Shown here one piece after another: positions 2,894 through 59,355 of a stretch of 64,000 bases of DNA. Positions within the stretch are counted from its first letter, which is position 1; each line of letters starts with the position of its first letter. The stretch is from Ginglymostoma cirratum. Taxonomy: Eukaryota. Below the pieces are notes generated by a model that had not been told where the DNA came from, did not search any database, and saw only the letters and a list, made by a program, of their open reading frames with translations. The DNA lies in assembly GCA_024137785.1 (NCBI GenBank), contig JAHRHZ010000217.1, positions 4,907,013-4,971,012 on the forward strand. Direction: 5' to 3'. The position numbers were made by a program, and so were the translations under genes.

Positions 2894-3229
2894 AAATAAA
2901 AACCAAAAGAACTGCGGATGCTGTAAATCAGGAGCAAAAACAAAGTTGCTGGAAAAGTTCAGCAGGTCTGGCAGCATCTGTGAAGGAGAAAACAGAGTTA
3001 ATGTTTTGGGTCCGATGACCCTTCCTCAGAACTGAAACAGCAAGCCGTTGTTAACAACAGAGTTCACCTGTAAGATGACGATCTTTTCAAGTAAAGATCA
3101 AGACAATTGATTAAAAGCTATGGAACTTAAGCTTTCAAGGATCACGGAACCTGAAACGTTAACTCTGTTTTCTCGTCCACAGATGCTGCCAGACCTGCTG
3201 AGCTTTTCCAGCAACTTTGTTTTTGTTCC
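2894..3229. mobile_element. Fold-back Penelope-derived mini-element with hammerhead remnants and ~100 bp central filler
   Basis: Inverted arms ~2927-3033 and 3137-3229; TSD TTGGTTT(G/A)CAAATA at 2885-2898 and 3230-3243. Confidence 0.8.
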
Positions 3230-3410
3230 TTGGTTTACAAATAGTTGGCTTCCGATATTACTCTAAGAGCATTCTGACTTAGACTGGTTAAATGTGTTTC
3301 AATTCTCATACCAGCAATTTGTCTGCTTGTTTTCAGCTAACAATTATCCCTGCAGGAATGTTGTAAATTCAGTTTGATTGATAGATCAAAGGGGTAGCTA
3401 AATGGTTAAC

Positions 3411-20370: not shown

Positions 20371-21038
20371 TATTGAGTTAGATGAAGGTGACAAAGGATA
20401 GGTTTAAAGTAAGTTGTGAAGAGGACACTGAAGCAAGAAAAGGTTGCAGACAAAATGAGAGGGTAAAAAATATGAAAATTTCTACTCTGGAAGAAAGAAA
20501 ATAAAACAAGTAATTATAATAACAGTTCATCCACTTCACCAACACCTTCCACCCCAACCTGAAGTTCACCTGGACCATCTCTAACACCTCTCTCTCCTTC
20601 CTGGACCTCTCTGTCTCCATCTCGGGAAACCACCTAGAAACCGATATCCATTTCAAAGCCCACTGACTCCCACAGCTACCCAGAATACATCTCCTCCCAC
20701 CCACCTTCCTGCAAATGTGCCATCCCCTATTCCCAATTCCTTTGCCTCTGCCGCATCTGCTCCCAGGATGAGGCATTCCACTCCCGTACATCTCAGATGT
20801 CCTCATTCTTCAAGGACCGCAACCTCTCCCCATCAATGGTCGAGAACGCCCTCGACCGTGTCTCCCGCATTTCCCGCAACTCATCTCTCACACCCCGTCC
20901 CCACAATAACAACCAAAAAAAATCCCCCTTGTCCTCACGTACCACCCCACCAACCTCCAGATCCAACGCATCATCCTCTGACACTTCCGCCATCTGCAAT
21001 CCGACCCCACCACCAAAGACACTTTTCCCTCCCCACCC

Positions 21039-21587
21039 TTGTCTGCTTTCCAGAGGGACCACTCTCTCCGTGACTCCCTTGTCTGCTCCACACTCCCCTC
21101 CAGCCCCACCACACCCGGCACTTTTCCCTGCAACCGCAGGAAGTGCTACACCTGCCCCCACACCTCATCCCTCACCCCAATCCCAGGCCCCAAGAAGACT
21201 TTCCACATCAAGCAGATGTTCACCTGCACATCTGCCAATGTGGTATACTGCATCCGCTGTACCCATTGTGGCTTCCTCTACATCGGGGAAGCCAAGCGGA
21301 GGCTTGGGGACCGCTTTGCAGAACACCTGCGCTCAGTTCGCAACAAACAACTGCATCTCCCAGTCGCGAACCATTTCAACTCCCCCTCCCACTCCTCAGA
21401 CGACATGTCCATCCTGGGCCTCCTGCAATGCCACAATGAGGCCACCCGAAGGCTACAGGAACAGCAAATCATATTCAGCCTGGGAACCCTGCAGCCCAAT
21501 GGCATCAATGTGGACTTCACAAGCTTCAAAATCTCCCCTCCCCCAACCGCATCCCAAAACCAGCCCAGCTCATCTCCACCTCCCTAA
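21039..21587 (+). pseudogene. PLE GIY-YIG endonuclease domain (C-terminal part of disrupted ORF)
   Basis: Cys-rich linker CNRRKCYTC followed by VVY/YIG motifs, catalytic-type R and E, and PNGIN motif. Confidence 0.9.
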
Positions 21588-21855
21588 CCTGTTTTTCCTC
21601 TCACCTATCCCCTCCTCCCACCTCAAGCCCCACCCCCATCTTCTACCTACTAACATCATCCCGCCCCCTTGACCTGTCCATCCTCCCTGGACTGACCTAT
21701 CTCCTCCCTACCCCCCCACCTACACTCACTTTTACTGGGTCCAGCCCGCCTCTTTGACTTGTCTGTCTCCTCTGCACCTATCCTCTCCTCTATCCATCCT
21801 CTATCCGCCTCCCCCTGTCTCCCTATTTATTTCAGAACCCTCTTCCCCTCCCCCA

Positions 21856-21889
21856 TTTCTGATGAAGGGTCTAGGCCCGAAACGTCAAG
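21856..21889 (+). ncRNA. Minimal type I hammerhead ribozyme motif (PLE-associated)
   Basis: ttt-CTGATGA-A-GGGT-ctag-GCCC-GAAAC-GTC-aag: intact core, 4-bp stem II, palindromic ACGT stem III, predicted cleavage after GUC (21886). Confidence 0.75.
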
Positions 21890-23009
21890 CTTTCCTGCTC
21901 CTATGATGCTGCTTGACCTGCTGTGTTCATCCAGCTCCACACCTTGTTATCTCGGATTCTCCAGCATCTGCAGTACCTTTTATCTCTGATGTAATTATAA
22001 TGTTAAGTATTTGCAGAACTTTAAGATGCAGAGGGATCCATGTGTTTTAGTGTATGACTTGAAGTCTGGAATGCAGATGCAGCAAATAATTAGGAAAGCC
22101 ATTAGAAAGATATCATTTGCTGCTCATATTTGCTAGAGTTTAGAAGTGTAAGAAGCAGCTTGGTTGAAACACAAGATCAAGGTGCCTTGACAGGACGCAG
22201 GATGAAGAGATGTTTCTTGTTGGGGGGAGGAATATAAGAACTAGAGGTCACCCATTTAAGACTCCACTTTCCAGTTAAAGGAAATACGGTTTCAGAATGC
22301 TAAAAGGTATGTGCTTTCACATTTTCCAGAGTAGCAGGGTTTTTATTTATGCAGAATGTGTTCATGTGCTTGGGTTGCCTACCAGAGTAACCATACTGCT
22401 AGCAGACCACATCACCACTGGCTGCCTTTTTAATTTGTTATTGCAGCTGATTGTTGCAAAATGAAGTCATCATGACTGTCTGGCAAGACATCAGACATTG
22501 ACCTGCAATGATTCTCCACTGGTGGTCCCATACGAGCTATATATTGAAGGTGTGGAATTCCTTTTGGTTCCAATATGTTGTGGAGCGAGCGTGTGGTGCC
22601 TACAAATCTTGCCGTCGACAGCACTCTACACCCTGGAGATGGCTGCAATTATACCAATGTAATGTATTCATTCTATTTGCTTCCCTCTGGCAAGAGAGAA
22701 TTAAATGTGGTTAGCTCTTTTAAAGTAGAGAGCTGTAGTGGCCTGCCTTACACAACCGTGGAGAGCAAGCTGGAAATGCTGTGACTATCTCTGACTTCAG
22801 CCTAAAAGCAGCCACAAAAATAACCATGGTGATCATCATCACTTTCATAACCACTGACAATGTAACCCTCACTCTGCTCTGAGTTAGTTGTTGTGCCTTC
22901 AGCAGGTGTAGGAAGGCCATCCTGAAGCATAGCATTCCTTCTGAGGTTCAAGTGAGTAAACTTCCTGTGGAAGTCAGATTGTGCGAAAAATAACAGATTC
23001 CCAACCCTG

Positions 23010-31312: not shown

Positions 31313-34300
31313 AACATAGAGTCATAGAGTAATACAGCATGGAAATAAGCCCTTTGGATCAAACTCGTCCATGCTGATCACGGTACCCACTCAGCTAGCT
31401 CCAATTGCCCCCATTTGGTTCATATCCCACTAAATCCTTCCCATCCATGTAGTCATCCAAATGCTTTTTAAATGTTGCTATTGTACCTGCCTCAAGTACT
31501 TTCTCTGGCAACGCATTCCATATACGCACCACTCTCTGTATGAAGAAGTTGCCCCTCAGGTCCTTCTTAAGTCTTTCCCCTGTCACCTTAAACCTGTGCC
31601 CTCTAGTTGTCAATTCCCCACCCTGAGAAAAACACTATATGTGTACATCCTATCTATGGCCCTCATGATCTTATACACCTCAAAAGGTCACCCCTCAATC
31701 TCCTATGTTCCAAGGAATAAAGTCCTATCTTGCCTACCTCTCCCTATAACTCAGGCCTACTAGTCCTGGCAACATCATCATAAATCTTCTTTGCACACTT
31801 TCCAGTTTAACTACGTCTTTCCTGTAGCAGGGTGACCAAAACTGTACACAATAACTCCATGTGCGGCCTCACCAATGACTTATACAGCTGTAACATAATG
31901 TCCCAATTCCTATACTCAATACTTTGACCGATGAAGGCCAGCATGCCAAATGCCTTCTTCACCACCCTGTCGACACCACTTTCAATGAACTACGTACTTG
32001 TACTCCTTGTCCCTCAGTTCCACAACAGTCCTCAGGACCGTACCATTTACTGTATTAGTCCTACCTTGGTTTGACATTTCAAAGTAAAACACTTCACCCT
32101 TGTTTGTATTGAATTGCACTTGCCAATCCTCAGCCCACTTCCCCATCGGATCAAGGTCACTCTGTAATTTTTGTCAACCTTCCTCATTATCAACAATACC
32201 TTCTAATTTTGTATCATCTGCAAACTTAGTAATCATGCCTTGTACATTCACATCCAGATCATTTATGTAAATAATAAATAGCAAAGTTCCCAGCACCGAC
32301 CCCTGTGACATGCCACTAGTCACAGGCCTCCAGTGCGAGAAACAACCTTCAACCATCACCCTCTGCTTCCTACCGTTGAACCAATTTTGAATCCAATTAG
32401 TTAGCTCTTCTTGGATCCCATTCAACCTGACCTTCATGACCAGCCTGCCATGCGGGACCTTGTCAAAGGCCTTACTAAAGTCCATACAGACAACATCCAC
32501 TGCCCTACCCTCATCTATCCTATCGGTTACCTCTTCAAAAAACGCTAAAGGATTTGTCAGACATGACTTCTCACGCACAACTCCAAGCTGGCTATCTCTA
32601 ATCAGACCTCAACTATCCAAATGTTGGTTGATCCTGTCCCTCAGTATCCTCTCCAATAACTAGCCTACCACTGATGTCAGGCTCACTGGCCTTTAGGTCC
32701 TTGGCTTGTCTTTGCTACCTTTCTTAAACAATGAAACAACATTAACCACCCTCCAGTCTTCCAGAACTTCACCAGTGACTAAGATGAAGCAAAAATCTCT
32801 GCAAGGGCCTCTGCAATTTCTTCCCTAGCCTCCAACAATGTCCGAGGGTGGACTTGATCAGGCCCAGGGGACTTATCCACCTTAAAGCAACCTTAGGCTG
32901 CAAATACCACCTCTCTGGTAATATGTATCTGGTCCAAAACATCCCCACTTGTTTCCATTATTTCTTTAGCATCCATGATTCTCTCCTGAGTATACACTGA
33001 GGAGAAATATTCATTAAAAATCTCCCCCATTTCCACATATAGATGGCCATGCTGATCTTTAAGGAGACCTATTTTCTCCCTAGCTCTTTATCTTAATATT
33101 GCGATAGAACCTCTTGGGATTGTCTGCCAGACCAATCTCATACTCATGTTTTGCTCTCCTGATTTTCCTCTTAAGCGTGCTCCTACACTTTTTATAATCA
33201 TCCAGGGATTTACCTGAGCCTGATAGCTTAAACCCAATGTATTCCTTCTTCTTTTTCCTGTCCAGAGTTTCAATATCCATCGTCAACTAGGGATCCCTAA
33301 ACCTGCCAGTTTTTCCCTTCACATACTGTCTCTGGACTCTTGAGATCACAGTTTTAAAAGTCTCCCATTTGCCAATTGTTCCTCTTCCTTCAAACAGACT
33401 CACCCAATCGACTACTGCCGGATCCTGCCTAAAGGCCCCAAAATTGGCCTTGCTCCAGTTTAGTACCTTAACCTATGGACTTGTCCTATCTTTTATCATA
33501 ACTATGTTAAAACAAAGAGAGTTATGGTCACTGGATCCAAAGTGCTCTCCGACTGACACTTCAGTCACTTGCCCGACCTCATTTCCTAAGAGGAGGTCCA
33601 GTGTTGCACCCTTCCAAGTAGCGCCCTCTACATATTGCTTTAGGAAACGTTCTTGGACACAGTTGCCAAATTCCTTCTGAGCAGACCTTTTGCACTTTAG
33701 GTGGCCCAGGTAATACAGGGAAAATTAAAATCTCCAACCAATACCATGTTGTTATTCATACGGATCCTTGCAATCTCTCTATACATCTGGTCCTCTAGTA
33801 CCCACTGGCTATTTGGGGGTCTATAATACAGTTCCAACAGAGTGTCCATCCTCTTCCTGTTTCTAAGTCCTAACCATATAGACTCATTTGATGACCCCTT
33901 AAGCACTGTTGTTATGTCCTCCCTTATTAAAAGGGCAATTCCCCCTTGTCGCTCATTTGTATTTCTGTCAGACCTGTAGCTTCTGTATCTTGGAACATTG
34001 AGCTGACAGTCTCGCCCTTCTCTCAGCCATGTTTCTGTTATGGTTATGATATCCCGTTACCCAGAGCTAATCCATGTTCTGAACTCATATGCCTTCTCAG
34101 TCAGACCTCATGCTTTGAAATAAATGCACTTTAAACCAGAAATCTATTTCCACACTTTACTGTGCCCCTGGCTATCCAGTAAACGTAGTAAACTTGCTCT
34201 CGATGGCTAATATATTTTCCCCTGACTTCTCAGTGGCCCTCTCTTGTCCAGAGTCCCAAACCTCCTGCCAAACTAGTTTAAACCCTCCCGGGTAACACTA

Positions 34301-41557: not shown

Positions 41558-41800
41558 GAGATGCTGAATGCCTAAACAGTAAAAAAAAGGTACTGGAAAA
41601 GCTCAGCAGGTCTGGCAGCATCTGTGGAGAGAGATGATAGTTAACATTTTGGCTCAAGTGACCTTTCCTCAGAACCTCACTCGACCTGAAACATTAACTA
41701 TGGTTTCTCCCCAGTGATGCTGCCAGACCTGCTGAGTTTTTCCAGCTATGTCTGTTCTCGTTTCTGATTTACAGCATTTACAGCTATGTTGGTTTTTATT
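41558..41800. mobile_element. Fold-back PLE mini-element centred on hammerhead remnants
   Basis: Left arm CTGGAAAAGCTCAGCAGGTCTGGCAGCATC..TTCCTCAGAAC; right arm GACCTGAAACATTAACT..GATGCTGCCAGACCTGCTGAG plus tail. Confidence 0.8.
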
Positions 41801-43836: not shown

Positions 43837-44071
43837 CCCAAGCCACACCCCCATCTCCTATCTACTAACATCATCCCACCCCCTTGACCTGTCCGTCCTC
43901 CCTGGACTGACCTATCTCCTCCCTACCCCCCTACCTACACTCACCTTTACTGGCTCCATCCCTGCCTCTTCGACTTGTCTGCCTCCTCTCCACCTATCCT
44001 CTCCTCTATCCATCCTCTATCCGCCTCCCCCTCTCTCCCTATTTATTTCAGAACCCTCTTCCCCTCCCCCA

Positions 44072-44105
44072 TTTCTGATGAAGGGTTTAGGCCCGAAACG
44101 TCAAG
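44072..44105 (+). ncRNA. Minimal type I hammerhead ribozyme motif (PLE-associated)
   Basis: ttt-CTGATGA-A-GGGT-ttag-GCCC-GAAAC-GTC-aag; differs from the 21856 copy only in loop II. Confidence 0.75.
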
Positions 44106-46869
44106 TTTTCCTGCTCCTATGATGCTGCTTGACCTGCTGTGTTCATCCAGCCCCATGCTTGTTATCTCGAACAATATGTAACTGTGTTAATGATATATTT
44201 TTACTTCTGAATGTCCTGATAAGCCTCTTGACTGTTATGGATTTTACAAAGTCCAGGAATCAAGCTGTTGAGTAGACAATTGCAATCAACAAAGTGCTTG
44301 ACATCGGCTGACACCTGTCAATGTTAGCTGAAAGTCCTTGTATTACCATGAGGTAATGTAAGTATATAAACTGGGGAGAAAATGCAATCTGCTACAATAG
44401 AAGTCCTAAAATTATTATCCCATCTCAGATAAGCCTCCATGCAGAGAAGCAACTTCATCCCTCACTTGGGTTAGTTGGTAAGTGGGTGGGGGCAATTAAT
44501 CTAGGGGCAGGGTGGTAGGTGGAGATGCCACCACCTCCTCACTTCAAACCTAATGTTAGTCTGAGAACGGGTTGGCATTGTACTTCCAAGTGAGGCCCTT
44601 TAGGGGGCAGTTAACTTCCTGCTAATAGTATTAACCCGGAGGTGGTCAACACAGGATGTGCAACAAGCAAACCTCATGTACAGTTGCTTACAGACTTCTT
44701 GGGAGTGTGAGGAGGTGCCTCATTTAAACACAATCAAACAGTTTGGATCTGACCTAGGAAAAGGGTCCTGTTGTCAGCCAGGCCCTGATCTTGCTGCAGA
44801 ACTCACTTGCTCATGACTCCTAGACCATGTTCCCCTCCTGAGTTGCAACAGTGCTGAACTTTCTATACAGTTACTTCTTTGAACTCCTGCATCTCTTGGA
44901 TCTGCCTTCCACATTGAAACCATATTTCAATGTTCTTCCTAACTTCAGTTAGTGCTCGTTTCCTTTCTAACTTAAAATATTCTACTTTCCTCACTAATTC
45001 ATCATTTTATGTAAATCTATTCACCTCAATGTTCTTTCCATTGCCCCAAAATTTACGCAATCATGCTGCAACCAAAAAAAAAGTTCTAGGAGACAATGTC
45101 AGGACAATTCCACACTGGTCCCAGTATGAGTCCCCAGAAATAAAATTAATCATAAGATACTCATAAATAATTCATAAATGCTTGAGAGCGGGCTCCAACA
45201 ATTCTTCCATCTCCATGAATAGCATGATAAGCCCTCCCAAGGGGAACTGATATCCTGGATTCTGGATGCATCTCTGTCCTCTGGATGACATGATCCCAAT
45301 TCTAGTCAGATTGTTTCCATTTTCAGAGGGTTAATTAGAATATCAACACAAACAAATAAAAAAGAAGTCATGCTCACCAAATTTCATGATCCATGTAAAA
45401 GATTGCAAATCCAAGAGCCACAGTGTGATCAGAATCTAATGTGCGTATCCTTCTTCACATGATCAACAATAGCTTTGATGTGAATGTCTCATTTTTTGGG
45501 ACAGTTTTAAACTAACACATCCTTGCAGAAATTATTGAAGTTGGTTGCACTGCTATTCTCATTTGAAGTAAAATAATATCGAGCAGGATACAAAACCAGC
45601 ATTATGCCGAATCCCATCAGTTTCCTGAGGGGAGAGTTAGGTGAAAACTAGCCTCTTCGTCTGATTAAGTAATGAAAATGAGGAGTCATAAAGACTGGTG
45701 GTGTTAAGGGTGGAGGGTCATAAGGGAAAGAGATACTGACACTAAGGGATGATGGAAAGAGATAATCATGTTCCCAGCTGAGGGGAGAACAGAGCGATAA
45801 AGAATGAAACTGCTGCAGAGAATGAGAGTAAGAAAATCTGTGAATAACTGTCGAAGAAAACCATAAAATAAACCTTTTTGTAGTTTAATTTTGGAATTAA
45901 AAATTTCTTCTATTCTAAAAATGTGTTCCTTATGATGTTTACGGAGAAACAAATTGATTATGATGAAAGACTGACCAAACAGTGTCCTAAAGCAATCTCA
46001 TATCGGCATTTTACTGCAGCATAAAGTTTTGTTCCAAATTTCAAAGGTTATTGCCATAATAACTCTTACCTTTATCATCGTGAAGTGCACCTGTGTTCAT
46101 GTTTATTGTTTCTGAAAAGAGCTTTTCAGTGACTCGTTTACATTGTATCCACAGGATCCGATGTTGCCTCATAAGTACACTGTCTATGCTGGGATTTGGC
46201 GTAACTACAATCGACATAGTATGAGTTAGGTAAAGTTTTGAAAATATTTCAGGCAGGCCATTATGTAATCAAAAGTCAATCATCATATCAATCAGGAATT
46301 TGATTTTCCAGTTATTTGAGCACTATCCTTATTCAAAGGTGAATTGCAATCATTCCCACCTTGCGCTAAAATATCATTTAAGTACATGTAAATATGGGTT
46401 GGGAGGGCATATGTGAGTAAGTACAAAGAGGTGCATCAAGTTGTTTGAATAACTGAGAAATGTTATTGGTTGTGCGCAAGAAAAAAATTCAAATAACATG
46501 AAGTCAGCTTTAGAGCATTTATTTGTCAAACCGTATATTTACACAAGAGAATTTTTCGATCTAAATAATGATGGCCACATGAGAACCCGTAATTCAACAT
46601 ATTTGTGTCAATGGACAGTTAAATGTTGCTGTCTGAGCTTCTACAAAAGAAGCTATAAAGGAATATTAAAAAAAAACAAAATTTCCTCTGCAGTCTTGAG
46701 AGTATCTGCATCAAGTGAATTTGAGCACCCAATTGTGCTACTATTGGGCCTGGGTTCATGTAACTTATTTATCCACTTAACAATTGCTATACATGATAAG
46801 TAATTTATTTGGTGAAAGCACAATATAAATGAAATCATTATAAATTTGTACTGTTGACATTGATACCTG

Positions 46870-54343: not shown

Positions 54344-54569
54344 TTCAAGTTTATGTAGGTAGAATAGAAGTGATCAGCCAAGAATTAATTGTAATAGCCT
54401 GTTAGACAGGGAATGCAGGCAGGAATGAGGGTTTCAACAGCAGAACAGCTGAGTGAAAGGTAAAGTTGGGTGGTTTTACAAATGTATGTGGAAATGCGTT
54501 TGTCAAAAATGATGAAAGTACAAGGTTGGAAACTCAATTCAGGGTGAAAATGTGACGCCAAGCAGACTG

Positions 54570-54794
54570 TGAGATAGTAGGAATTGCCAATGCTGGAGAA
54601 TCTGAGATAACAAGGTGTACAGCTGGATGAACGCAGCAGGCCAGGCAGCATCAGAGGAGCAGGAAAGCTGACGTTTCGTGTCTGGACCCTTTTTCAGAAA
54701 ATGAAGAAGGGTCCCGACCTGAAACATTAGCTTTCCTGCTCCTCTGATGCTGCCTGGCCTGCTGTATTCATCCAGCTCTACACCTTGTTATCTC
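54570..54794. mobile_element. Complete fold-back PLE mini-element (93-bp inverted arms, 5-nt spacer, 33-nt one-sided tail)
   Basis: Arms 54604-54696 and 54702-54794; TSD CCAAGCAGACTG at 54558-54569 and 54799-54810; hammerhead cores meet at the centre. Confidence 0.9.
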
Positions 54795-54963
54795 TTAACC
54801 AAGCAGACTGACTTAATCTCTGACCAGTGTCAGGGAGATAGGTGGATTCAATAGCTAGGGCACAGAGTTGGACAGGGAGAAAATTTCTGCTTGTTCAATA
54901 CTAAATGTCGATCTGGTGGTTCTGCAAAATGTTGGCTTTTATTCTGAACAAACACCATCTACA

Positions 54964-55778
54964 AGTATCTAACGATGACGAGTCAAAATACAGAAGGGTG
55001 ATAAAGTGCTCGGTGATGTGGTGCAATGAAAACAAACTGTCTCTCAACGTCAGCAAAACTAAAGAACTAATCATTGACTTCATAAAGAAAGGAGGAGAAC
55101 ACGCCCCCATCTACATCAACGGAACTGAGGTTGAGAGAGTGAAGAGCATCAAGTTCATTGGAGTGACGATAACCAATGTCCTGTCCTGGACTTCCCACAC
55201 AAATGAGACAGTCAAGAAGGCACAACAATGCCTCTACTTCCTCAGGTGACTCAAGAAATTTGGCATGTCCATGAGGTCCCTCACCAACTTCTACAGATGC
55301 ACCATTGAATGCATATTGTCCGAGCGCATAATGGCCTTGCATGGCAACTGCTCTGCCCACGACTGTAAGAAACTACAGAAGGTGGTGTGCGCAGCCCAGA
55401 CATCACAGAACCCGACTTCCATCCATGAACTTTACTTACACAGCTCGCTGCCGTAGAAAGGCTGTCAACATCATCAAAGACCCATCATACCCTGGTAATG
55501 ACTTCCTACAACTTCTTCTGTCAAGCAGAAGATACAGAAGCCTGAACACATGAACAAGCAGGTTAGGGAACAGCTTCTTTCCAGCTGTTATCAGACTGTT
55601 AAATAGACTCGAGCCTCAAATAATGTAACCTGCAGTGTAACCTGTACAGCTCTGAGCTTTTTTGATCTGTATATCCTTTTCTTGCTGCGATCTGCCTGTA
55701 AGGCTCGTAAACAAAACTTTTCACTGTATTTCCGTACATGTGATAGTAAATCAATCAATCAATCATACAATCAATCAA
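54964..55778 (+). mobile_element. Rex1/Babar-clade LINE 3' fragment
   Basis: DDESKYR..WCNENKLSLNVSKTKELIIDF..VERV..KFIGV..VKKAQQCLYFLR..LTNFYRCTIE; (AATC)n tail. Confidence 0.85.
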
Positions 55779-56228
55779 TACCTAATGTGGATCATGGCAG
55801 TGATACCCCAGAGGGTGGAATATTTCTATTTTGAGTTGAGGTTTTTTGTTAAATAAGATTTATGGCGGCTGGTCCACCAGATTCAGAGCAACGTTTCCTT
55901 GAGGGAATCTTTTTTATCTTCACCTAATTATTAGTGCAACCTGGCTCTTTGGTGCTCTCCTTTGGAATCATGCAGCATGAGAGACTGAAGTGCTTGTCCC
56001 TGCTAGGACCTTGTGTTATTCACATGACTGGTGCCACATTTTAAGACCAACTATATACCACTCCAGATGCTGTAAGTGGGAACTGGTCCTCACATTGTGG
56101 TGCCAGAATGTGAAAATTAATGCCATGCTTTTGGATTATGCCACATGGAGAAGCATATAGCTGATAAATAGTAAGGGGCTAAGATGATGGTACTCTGATA
56201 AGAGTTGTGAGATTTATATATTTCTTTC

Positions 56229-57580
56229 TTGTTGTAGGAAAAGTTTTAGAAAGGATTATAAGAGATCGGATTTATAATCATCTAGCAAGCAACAATTTGA
56301 TTGGAGATAGTCAACATGGATTCGTCAAGGGCAGGTCGTGTCTCACAAACCTCATTGAGTTTTTTGAGAAGGTGACCAAGCACTTGGATGAGGGTAGGGC
56401 AGTTGACGTGGTGTACATGGACTTCAGTAAAGCCTTTGATAAGGTTCCACATGGTAGGCTATTGGAGAAAATGCGGAGGCATGGGATTGAGGGAGATTTA
56501 GCAGTTTGGATTAGAAACTGGCTTTCTGAAAGAAGCCAAAGAGTGGTAGTTGATGCAAAATATTCAGCCTGAAGTCTGGTTACTAGTGGTGTGCCACAAG
56601 GATCTGTTTTGGGACCACTGCTGTTCGTCATTTTTATAAATGACTTGGACGCAGACATAGGTGGATGGGTAAGTAAGTTTGCAGATGACACTAAAGTCGG
56701 TGGAGTGGTGGACAGTGTGGAAGAATGTTGCAGGTTGCAGGGAGACTTGGATAAACTGCAGAATTGGGCTGAAAGGTGGCAAATGGAGTTCAATGCAGAT
56801 AAATGTGAGGTGATTCACTTTGGGAAGAATAATAGGAAGGCAGAATACTGGGTCAATGGAATGATTCTCGGTAGTGTGGATGTGCAGAGGGATCTTGGTG
56901 TCCAGGTACATAGATCCCTGAAAGTTGCCACCCAGGTTGATACTGCTGTTAAGAAGGCATACGGTGTGTTAGGTTTCATTGGTAGAGGGATTGAGTTCCG
57001 GAGCCGTGATGTCATGCTGCAACTATACAAAACACTAGTGCGGCCTCACTTGGAATACTGCGTACAGTTCTGGTCACCCCATTACAGGAAGGATGTGGAA
57101 GCATTGGAAAAGGTGCAGAGGAGATTTACCAGGATGTTGCCTGGTCTGGAGCGAAGGTCTTATGAGGAAAGGCTGAGGGACTTGGGTCTGTTCTCATTGG
57201 AGAGAAGAAGGCTAAGAGGGGATTTCATAGAGACCTACAAAATGATCAGAGGATTAGATAGGGTGGACAGTAAGAGTCTTTTTCCTAGGATGATGACGTT
57301 GGCTAGTACGAGGGGGCATAACTGCAAATTGAGGGGTGATAGATTTAAGGCAGATGTCAGAGGCAGGTTCTTTACTCAGAGAGTGGTAAGGGCATGGAAT
57401 GCCCTGCCTGCCAGTGTAGTTAACTCAGCCACATTAGGGGCATTTAAACAGTCCTTGGATAAGCATATGGATGATGATGGGATAGTGTAGGGGGATGGGC
57501 TTAGATTAGTTCACAGGTCGGCGTAACATCGAGGGCCGAAGGGCCTGTTCTGCGCTGTATTGTTCTATGTTCTATGTTCT
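56229..57580 (+). mobile_element. Young 5'-truncated CR1 LINE (RT domain, one in-frame stop)
   Basis: ORFs 56207-56572 and 56591-57490 share a frame, separated only by TGA at 56570-56572; QGSVLGP, FADD; (TTCTATG)n tail. Confidence 0.97.
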
Positions 57581-58789: not shown

Positions 58790-59355
58790 AGAAGGAGGGT
58801 TGGCACTGGGGGAAGGTAGATGAGATGGTGATAGATGGAAGTAGGTAGGGGTTAGTGGGGATTTGTCAGTGGGAAGGGTGGGGCAGATAGGTGGGGGAAA
58901 ATATGAACATGTTGTGTCAGGTCAAGGAGACGGAGATGAGAAGGAGGGTTGGACATGGGATAAGATATGGAGTGGGGAGATTCTAAAACTGGTGAATTCT
59001 ATGTTCAGACCATCAGCTGTAGGCTCCCAAGGTGGAATATGAGGTGTTGATCCTCCATTGTGGCACTGGACGAGGGCCAGGATGGACATGTCATTGAGGG
59101 AGTGAGAGGGGGAGTTAAAATGGTTAGCGACCAGAAGGTATTGTTGATTATGTCATCTCACCTACCTTCCCCCAGCCTCACCTCCACCTCCCTCTATTTA
59201 TTTCCCAGCTCCCTTTCCCCTCCCCAGTTTTGATGAAGGGTCCCCACCCAAAATGTTGACTTCCTGCTCCTCTGATGCTGCCTGACCTGTTGTGTTCCTC
59301 CAGCTCCACACTATGTGGACCCTGACTCCAGCATCTGCAGTTCTTGCTATCTCTA
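58790..59355. mobile_element. Older PLE with inverted 5' segment (minus ~58790-59150, plus ~59150-59355)
   Basis: Minus VANHFNSPSHSLNDMSIL; plus 3' end with decayed hammerhead TTGATGAAGGGT..ACCCAAAATGTT and tail. Confidence 0.8.

Follow-up and report, generated by a model that had tools for sequence, protein, structure and literature searches.

The element at positions 54558-54810 of the window (the whole stretch of DNA analysed, 64,000 nt) is derived from a Penelope-like element (PLE) and of a recurrent kind, a fossil record of a transposition mechanism. Insertions of this kind have a PLE origin, a target-site duplication (TSD), one tail per insertion, outer ends at +98 and +131, inner ends piled up at about +1, and variable centres with templated filler. 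Their layout and the opposite-strand hammerhead pairs have been published, and the one-tail rule and the fixed inner stop were counted here. The whole is probably to be read as twin priming in which run-off stubs of a PLE were joined end to end; if this reading is right, the regular ends suggest that a PLE likely copies its RNA from both sides of a DNA cut at once. Positions were numbered from an A four bases before the hammerhead core, set as +1 (the preceding base being 0), with the core beginning at +5, the ribozyme cut after +32, and the two TATCTC motifs ending at +98 and +131. The features are as follows.

54558..54569, no strand: left copy of the TSD, 12 bp, exact direct repeat
54570..54603, minus strand: PLE tail (+99 to +132), on the left arm only, ending at the distal TATCTC site; 33 nt (54571-54603) plus one base at 54570
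54604..54702, minus strand: tailed arm, a pLTR copy reaching through the core to about +1, the GAAAA 'spacer' included; base 54702 is assignable to either arm
54670..54697, minus strand: damaged minimal hammerhead core with an altered G8 and a helix II pair missing, by the descriptor of PMC4209133
54701..54728, plus strand: damaged minimal hammerhead core lacking C3 and with an altered cleavage triplet, by the same descriptor (PMC4209133)
54702..54794, plus strand: tail-less arm, a copy of pLTR positions +6 to +98, with its end at the proximal TATCTC site
54795..54798, no strand: four extra bases from the right arm to the TSD, possibly non-templated or filler
54799..54810, no strand: right copy of the TSD, 12 bp, exact match to the left copy
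20982..21986, plus strand: long relative in the window, not part of the element, with a GIY-YIG domain, a tail, a hammerhead core at 21859 and, ahead of that core, TATTTAT at 21824 (-31) and an Inr-like A at 21855 (+1)

The inverted arms (54604-54696 and 54702-54794) are 93 nt each and 90% complementary, with 9 mismatches and a gap of 5 nt (GAAAA), and the RNA fold of the element has a z-score of -19 versus 200 shuffles. The sequence-only reading had described 93-bp arms with about nine mismatches, a GAAAA link, a 33-nt tail on the left arm only and a 12-bp TSD, all of which the coordinates confirmed; the layout that it called fully resolved holds for arms, tail and TSD, but it had left out the four bases at 54795-54798. 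GAAAA sits between the arms as proposed, but is the left arm's own continuation instead of a neutral linker, its G being C3 of the minus-strand core and the next T run being the one that precedes the core in long copies. The two opposed hammerhead cores lie at the centre where they had been placed, but neither is intact, G8 being changed on the minus strand and C3 lost on the plus strand. The minus-strand core reads CUGAAAA and forms 3 of 4 helix II pairs; the plus-strand core reads AUGAAGA, with C3 lost at the junction, and has AUU where the family has GUC. Intact C3, G8 and helix II were sought in both cores of this copy, and neither core has the set; changes of C3 and of G8 abolish cleavage by the PAc ribozyme (PMC11167929). 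An Rfam scan of the element returned no hammerhead model match and only three miRNA-hairpin matches at 26-29 bits, far under the thresholds, and the cores were assigned by the minimal-hammerhead description of PMC4209133, not by Rfam. At the family level the minimal hammerhead is complete (CUGANGA, extra base, helix II, GAAA, palindromic 15.2-16.2, UH), with a weak helix I. Freeing either core from the hairpin was computed to take 30.9 kcal/mol in this copy, in line with the earlier suggestion that double-stranded RNA could mask ribozyme cleavage, but such masking is moot here because both cores are mutated. In the family, an upstream frame of 27 codons has its start within the arm and its stop where the tail ends; the corresponding stretch of the element is 54570-54653 on the minus strand. 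Outside CpG sites sampled arms lie 6% from the sample majority, and the arms of this copy differ at 9 of 93 positions; the locus looks old and unselected, and is probably functionless as a single site.

Both arms are copies of the pLTR end of an endonuclease-positive (EN+) PLE. Long copies that share this end carry frames for RT and GIY-YIG (L129 and L139) upstream of the same pLTR, the profile matches in these frames being RVT_1 at E 3e-4, below the curated cut-off, and GIY-YIG at E 3e-5, above the cut-off in L139. The GIY-YIG is C-terminal with CCHH-type cysteines, a CxxC lying inside its core in both frames, and a C-x4-C-x2-C linker was found in the frames of L129, L139, L138 and L205. A CX2-5CxxC linker before GIY-YIG characterizes the Neptune clade and is common to Nematis and Naiad (PMC8557442); by this motif, the parent would fit the Neptune type. 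Longer PLE 3′ fragments at 43850-44168 and 59150-59353 end in the promoter-like region, hammerhead and arm, like that at 20982-21986.

Tandem copies gave the order of the unit as a C-rich 3′ region, TATTTAT, about 22 pyrimidine-rich bases, CC-A-TTT, the core, about 95 nt, the tail and the 5′ body, whose ATG lies about 45 nt past the tail. Upstream of the core, TATTTATT was found in 18,860 long ends, among the listed matches mostly about 31 nt before CC-A-TTTC. Metazoan core promoters typically have a -31 spacing and YYANWYY. Because the assignment is based on the identity of TATTTAT, its -31 spacing and YYANWYY, the promoter is a putative one, and from the TATA-like box at -31 and the Inr-like motif we infer that +1 is the transcription start. 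TATTTAT is the TATA box of the SV40 promoter, where it is called weak (PMC8198421). A splice acceptor was considered as the inner end and rejected, the neighbouring AG motifs not being at +1.

Searching the genome (4.36 Gb) yielded at least 6,267 mini-elements with two exact 14-mers (551+3,516+2,200) and, by exact motif, at least about 3,700 centres. This high copy number, together with the recurrence of some centres including that of this copy, would be expected of a self-propagating hairpin family, retrozyme- or MITE-like and copied as a unit, which the sequence-only reading had put forward alongside a recurrent product of PLE insertion. The genome-wide comparison of centre junctions that it proposed was run and gave mostly unique centres and few recurrent ones: 41 of 53 listed centres were distinct, with 30 query-ranked loci excluded. 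The most frequent one, in 8 of the 53, comes from annealing at the TTC-W-GAA quasi-palindrome (+3 to +9), and recurrent centres are found with arms of more than one subfamily and with the tail on either side. The centre of this copy makes up 2 of the 53 and is also that of L008, L009, L013 and L039. Against copying as a unit stand, besides, the lack of the TATA-like box in the mini-elements, the lack of tandem units on one strand and the state of the cores, at least one being intact in 31 of 93 fold-backs, none in 62 and two in 3. Retrozymes have at least two same-strand tandem units each with a complete hammerhead, an arrangement absent from the element. MITEs have symmetric terminal repeats, a fixed short TSD, common internal sequence and a DNA-transposase parent. 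The earlier description of a MITE-like look with retrotransposon hallmarks was apt, the ends being asymmetric, the TSD variable, the centres distinct in 41 of 53 and the parent an RT element. The propagating hairpin is already largely refuted, and we give it a very small probability.

Filler that re-uses local sequence is a pattern of polymerase-theta-type joining, and among fillers of at least 7 nt a 6-mer of the local element was found in 11 of 18 (1.3 in shuffles). The mostly unique centres and the templated filler therefore mark the hairpins as something that PLE insertion yields again and again on the side, and not as a retrozyme or MITE that propagates itself. This agrees with the other branch of the earlier proposal, which also draws support from the RT/GIY-YIG parent and from fold-backs built separately in several subfamilies. 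Arm-to-arm divergence was 7.7% versus 10.8% to other copies (82 fold-backs; 0 of 2,000 permutations), with alleles common at six subfamily sites, and when a one-base indel was tallied by hand in the first 100 listed elements, 54 + 37 were concordant, 5 discordant and 4 other, where about 46 discordant were expected. The discordant arm pairs need two templates, and from the likeness of the arms and the variety of the centres it follows that hairpins were made repeatedly from whichever source was active, the arms usually coming from one source.

Several other configurations were seen at centres. L034/L067/L068 form a complex multi-unit insertion in which identical centres are repeated and target pieces duplicated; pairs of identical centres 370-550 bp apart (C13:25842174/25842541, C14:32641365/32641805 and C2:23584786/23585330) reflect local duplication or an assembly artefact. 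Runs of N between near-identical inverted arms, in the window and at several loci, may be assembly gaps at young perfect hairpins or else withheld stretches; if they are gaps, the youngest mini-elements are under-counted. At 2897-3230 and 41580-41780 lie older fold-backs of a more distant PLE family, also inward-facing, with longer or degraded centres.

A TSD of at least 9 bp was present in 78 of 102 fold-back rows versus one in each of five shuffles, mostly 9-17 bp with a median of 13; the variable length, 12 bp here, and an inverted 5′-truncated copy with a 30-40 bp tail at one end are those of an EN+ PLE insertion. Among 63 fold-backs not picked by query likeness, 57 had one tail, 5 none and 1 two (expected 31/18/14, p ~1e-10); L186, scored as one-tailed, has part of the tail on both arms. 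Genome-wide, two-tailed elements numbered 135 versus 2,011 strand matches of the tail with any arm, a two-tailed to one-tailed ratio of about 0.05-0.08 versus 0.5 if tails were independent (exact-match rates 57/88 and 88/186). The rule also held in 11 of 12 long two-armed insertions with a common TSD, and on unpaired arms the tail was present in about half (44 of 79 long, 33 of 78 short). Outer ends were bimodal, at +97/98 and +131-134, each after TATCTC. Neither arm contained the other in 15 of 71 fold-backs, the tailed arm being the shorter one and in several cases only part of the tail; the opposite asymmetry was seen in 14, and both ends lay at +8 or upstream in 42. Palindromes can undergo later one-sided centre deletions, and such deletions could mimic variable centres and non-nested arms. 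In vitro, two RT start sites, which the two outer ends match, bound the tail, and both DNA strands are extended (PMC11167929). The 30 query-ranked loci were excluded from the tail, nesting and centre counts and kept in the TSD, allele, core and single-arm counts; BLAST ends are accurate to about 3 nt, sampled loci are mostly from contigs C1-C4, and rows were dropped when arms had N near the ends, fell below 78-80% identity or lay near the locus edge.

On the inner side, arms break off at a TATA/Inr-like point that lies 4 nt ahead of the hammerhead core, and not where the ribozyme cuts. Among bystander arms, 23 of 81 end within -2 to +5, which is 23 of the 47 reaching there, versus 8 of 81 over the next ~200 nt upstream and 3 of 81 at +30 to +35, near the ribozyme cut (+32). 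Where loci had been chosen by their core, 54 of the 123 arms continue across the promoter-like region; of the remaining 69, 64 match the parent for at most 7 bases before the core. Single-armed short copies have a TSD abutting +1 in 19 of 48 cases, 16 of them tail-less (shuffles 0-1); +98 therefore primes and +1 stops without a hairpin. That so many arms pass +1 would also suit twin priming on a longer RNA with an RT pause at +1, caused by structure or by the upstream C-rich tract, and a template-structure stop there would give the same pile-up of inner ends. Against such a pause stand the promoter-like geometry and an additional T ahead of the core, seen in 16 of 60 short arms and 0 of 80 long ones, as expected at a template end. 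The partial tandems of L093 (1537-1890) and L136 also speak against it: their downstream unit starts exactly at +1 and is attached at about +220 of the unit upstream, the product to be expected if the RT jumped templates from an RNA 5′ end. We therefore rate the pause as improbable. A base tally for a cap-derived G gave G 8, A 7, T 1 and C 15 (31 in all), a signal at best weak.

The ribozyme cut was rejected as the main route to the inner ends: among the first 50 of 551 listed short-spacer elements the spacer is at most 10 nt in 3, all of which keep bases upstream of the cut, and elements with both arms at the cut are all but absent, which agrees with the use of uncleaved RNA as template in vitro. 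About 7 of these 50 join one arm near +31 to +33, an ambiguous class of roughly 1% that could come from a 4-nt microhomology or equally from the end of a cleaved RNA. A cluster of 5′ ends near -985 proved to be an artefact of an insertion in the reference copy.

Under the twin-priming reading, the endonuclease makes a staggered cut of about 13 bp, as the TSDs show, and each 3′ end of the target would prime RT, one at +131 and the other at +98, two start sites being suggested by the fixed outer ends and the one-tail rule. A protein dimer would carry out the two primings, in most cases on one RNA or on a sibling of it, with uncleaved RNA as template. Starts in the 5′ pLTR would let both cDNAs run off the RNA 5′ end at +1 and so yield run-off stubs, and starts in the 3′ pLTR would yield long copies. 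Since in 3 of 12 long insertions one arm is long and the other a +1 stub, however, starting twice in the same pLTR copy is not a rule. Free cDNA ends would then be trimmed and joined by host microhomology-type repair or with filler; the filler signature is observed, and the joining pathway itself we infer. The central place of the hammerhead would follow simply from its beginning 4 nt downstream of the putative RNA start.

Alternatively, a single cDNA begun from the tail could reach the RNA end, snap back and be copied into the second arm, the endonuclease trimming that arm at +98 and later deletions diversifying the centre; views close to this are found in PMC3846280 and PMC8557442. Such self-priming predicts one tail per insertion and concordant arms, and the quasi-palindrome at +3 to +9, source of the commonest centre, would help the snap-back. 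Unless deletions followed later, however, it sits poorly with the 16 tail-less single-armed copies with an abutting TSD, with the shorter tailed arm in 15 of 71, in several of which only part of the tail is left, and with the 5 of 96 elements (hand tally) whose arms belong to different subfamilies. It also sits poorly with both sites being RT starts in vitro (PMC11167929). We consider self-priming unlikely, though less so than the pause. Generalized from the twin-priming reading, the odds lean slightly towards PLEs integrating by paired target priming, in which a dimer would extend both strands from two fixed RNA sites, the tail and the inverted pLTR would be one phenomenon, and priming in the 5′ pLTR would give 'strong-stop'-like cDNAs to the transcription start, with more than 6,000 joined-pair fossils here.

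The PLE insertion layout of inverted pLTR, tail and TSD is already published (PMC3846280, PMC8557442, PMC2377424). Pen2/Pen2a of A. vaga and the general EN+ PLE scheme share with the element the inverted 5′-truncated copy, the 30-40 bp tail at one end, the TSD and the pLTR hammerhead (PMC3846280, PMC8557442), and A. vaga also has a putative TATA/Inr in the pLTR (PMC3846280), unlike D. virilis Penelope with its TATA-less internal promoter (PMC2377424). Compared with published insertions, the element has no ORF and both arms are pLTR stubs stopping at a fixed point, and its thousands of copies let the one-tail rule and the stop be counted; in the literature searched, neither a tail count per insertion nor a fixed inner stop was found, though the genomic ends in Figs S1-S2 of PMC11167929 may bear on this. 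Anolis Poseidon (PAc) resembles the present case in two adjacent RT starts bounding the tail, cutting and extension of both strands, an uncleaved RNA template and a predicted dimer; its assay shows no start-site difference between strands (PMC11167929), whereas in the genomic copies here nearly every insertion combines the two kinds of start, one of each. The PAc clade differs by its linker motif, and the ORF here starts after the tail. As in L1 twin priming, the second RT proceeds from the other target end, a discrete TSD is kept and the junction is end-joined, but the two L1 cDNAs copy adjacent, nearly non-overlapping RNA parts, whereas here the same ~95 nt is copied from fixed sites into a palindrome (PMC11702581). 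The arms overlap along their length, unlike L1-type templates; the element works like twin priming but is not L1. In Schistosoma mansoni, minimal hammerheads that lie in pairs on opposite strands, 100-700 bp apart, and are likewise read as truncated PLEs, are mentioned briefly in PMC4209133, in passages that hold no TSD, tail or junction analysis. Non-LTR retrozymes are also PLE-derived and non-coding with a type I hammerhead, but are same-strand tandem repeats, in contrast to a single inverted pair with damaged cores (10.64898/2026.07.22.740005).

How the inverted repeats and the tail of PLEs arise is left unresolved in PMC8557442 and PMC11167929, and the PAc study leaves the later steps open (PMC11167929). 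The stubs offer thousands of natural products with countable ends and give sharp predictions testable in the existing Anolis assay: one start of each kind per target, an RNA start at +1, an uncleaved template and an end-joining signature. They also carry a warning for annotators, who would enter hairpins of this sort as MITEs or miRNA precursors.

Among the 15 joints listed out of 478, no empty orthologous site with one TSD copy was found. The element is present in a contig of organism A that spans the left junction (12 differing letters in 136, about 91% identical), and one of organism B reaches 25 letters into the element and was left out of the junction count. A scan for host genes covered 44 of the 84 stop-to-stop frames of at least 90 aa, a length at which short exons would be missed, and matched only GIY-YIG, RT, endonuclease and 20 aa of ALKBH8_N, the last in a LINE-type fragment adjoining the element and probably repeat-derived. 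A single tail-less 5′-truncated PLE end (+35 to +97) with a 15-bp TSD lies at 1183-1244, and LINE-type RT/endonuclease fragments at 32177-34056, 54905-55760 and 56183-57487 flank the region.
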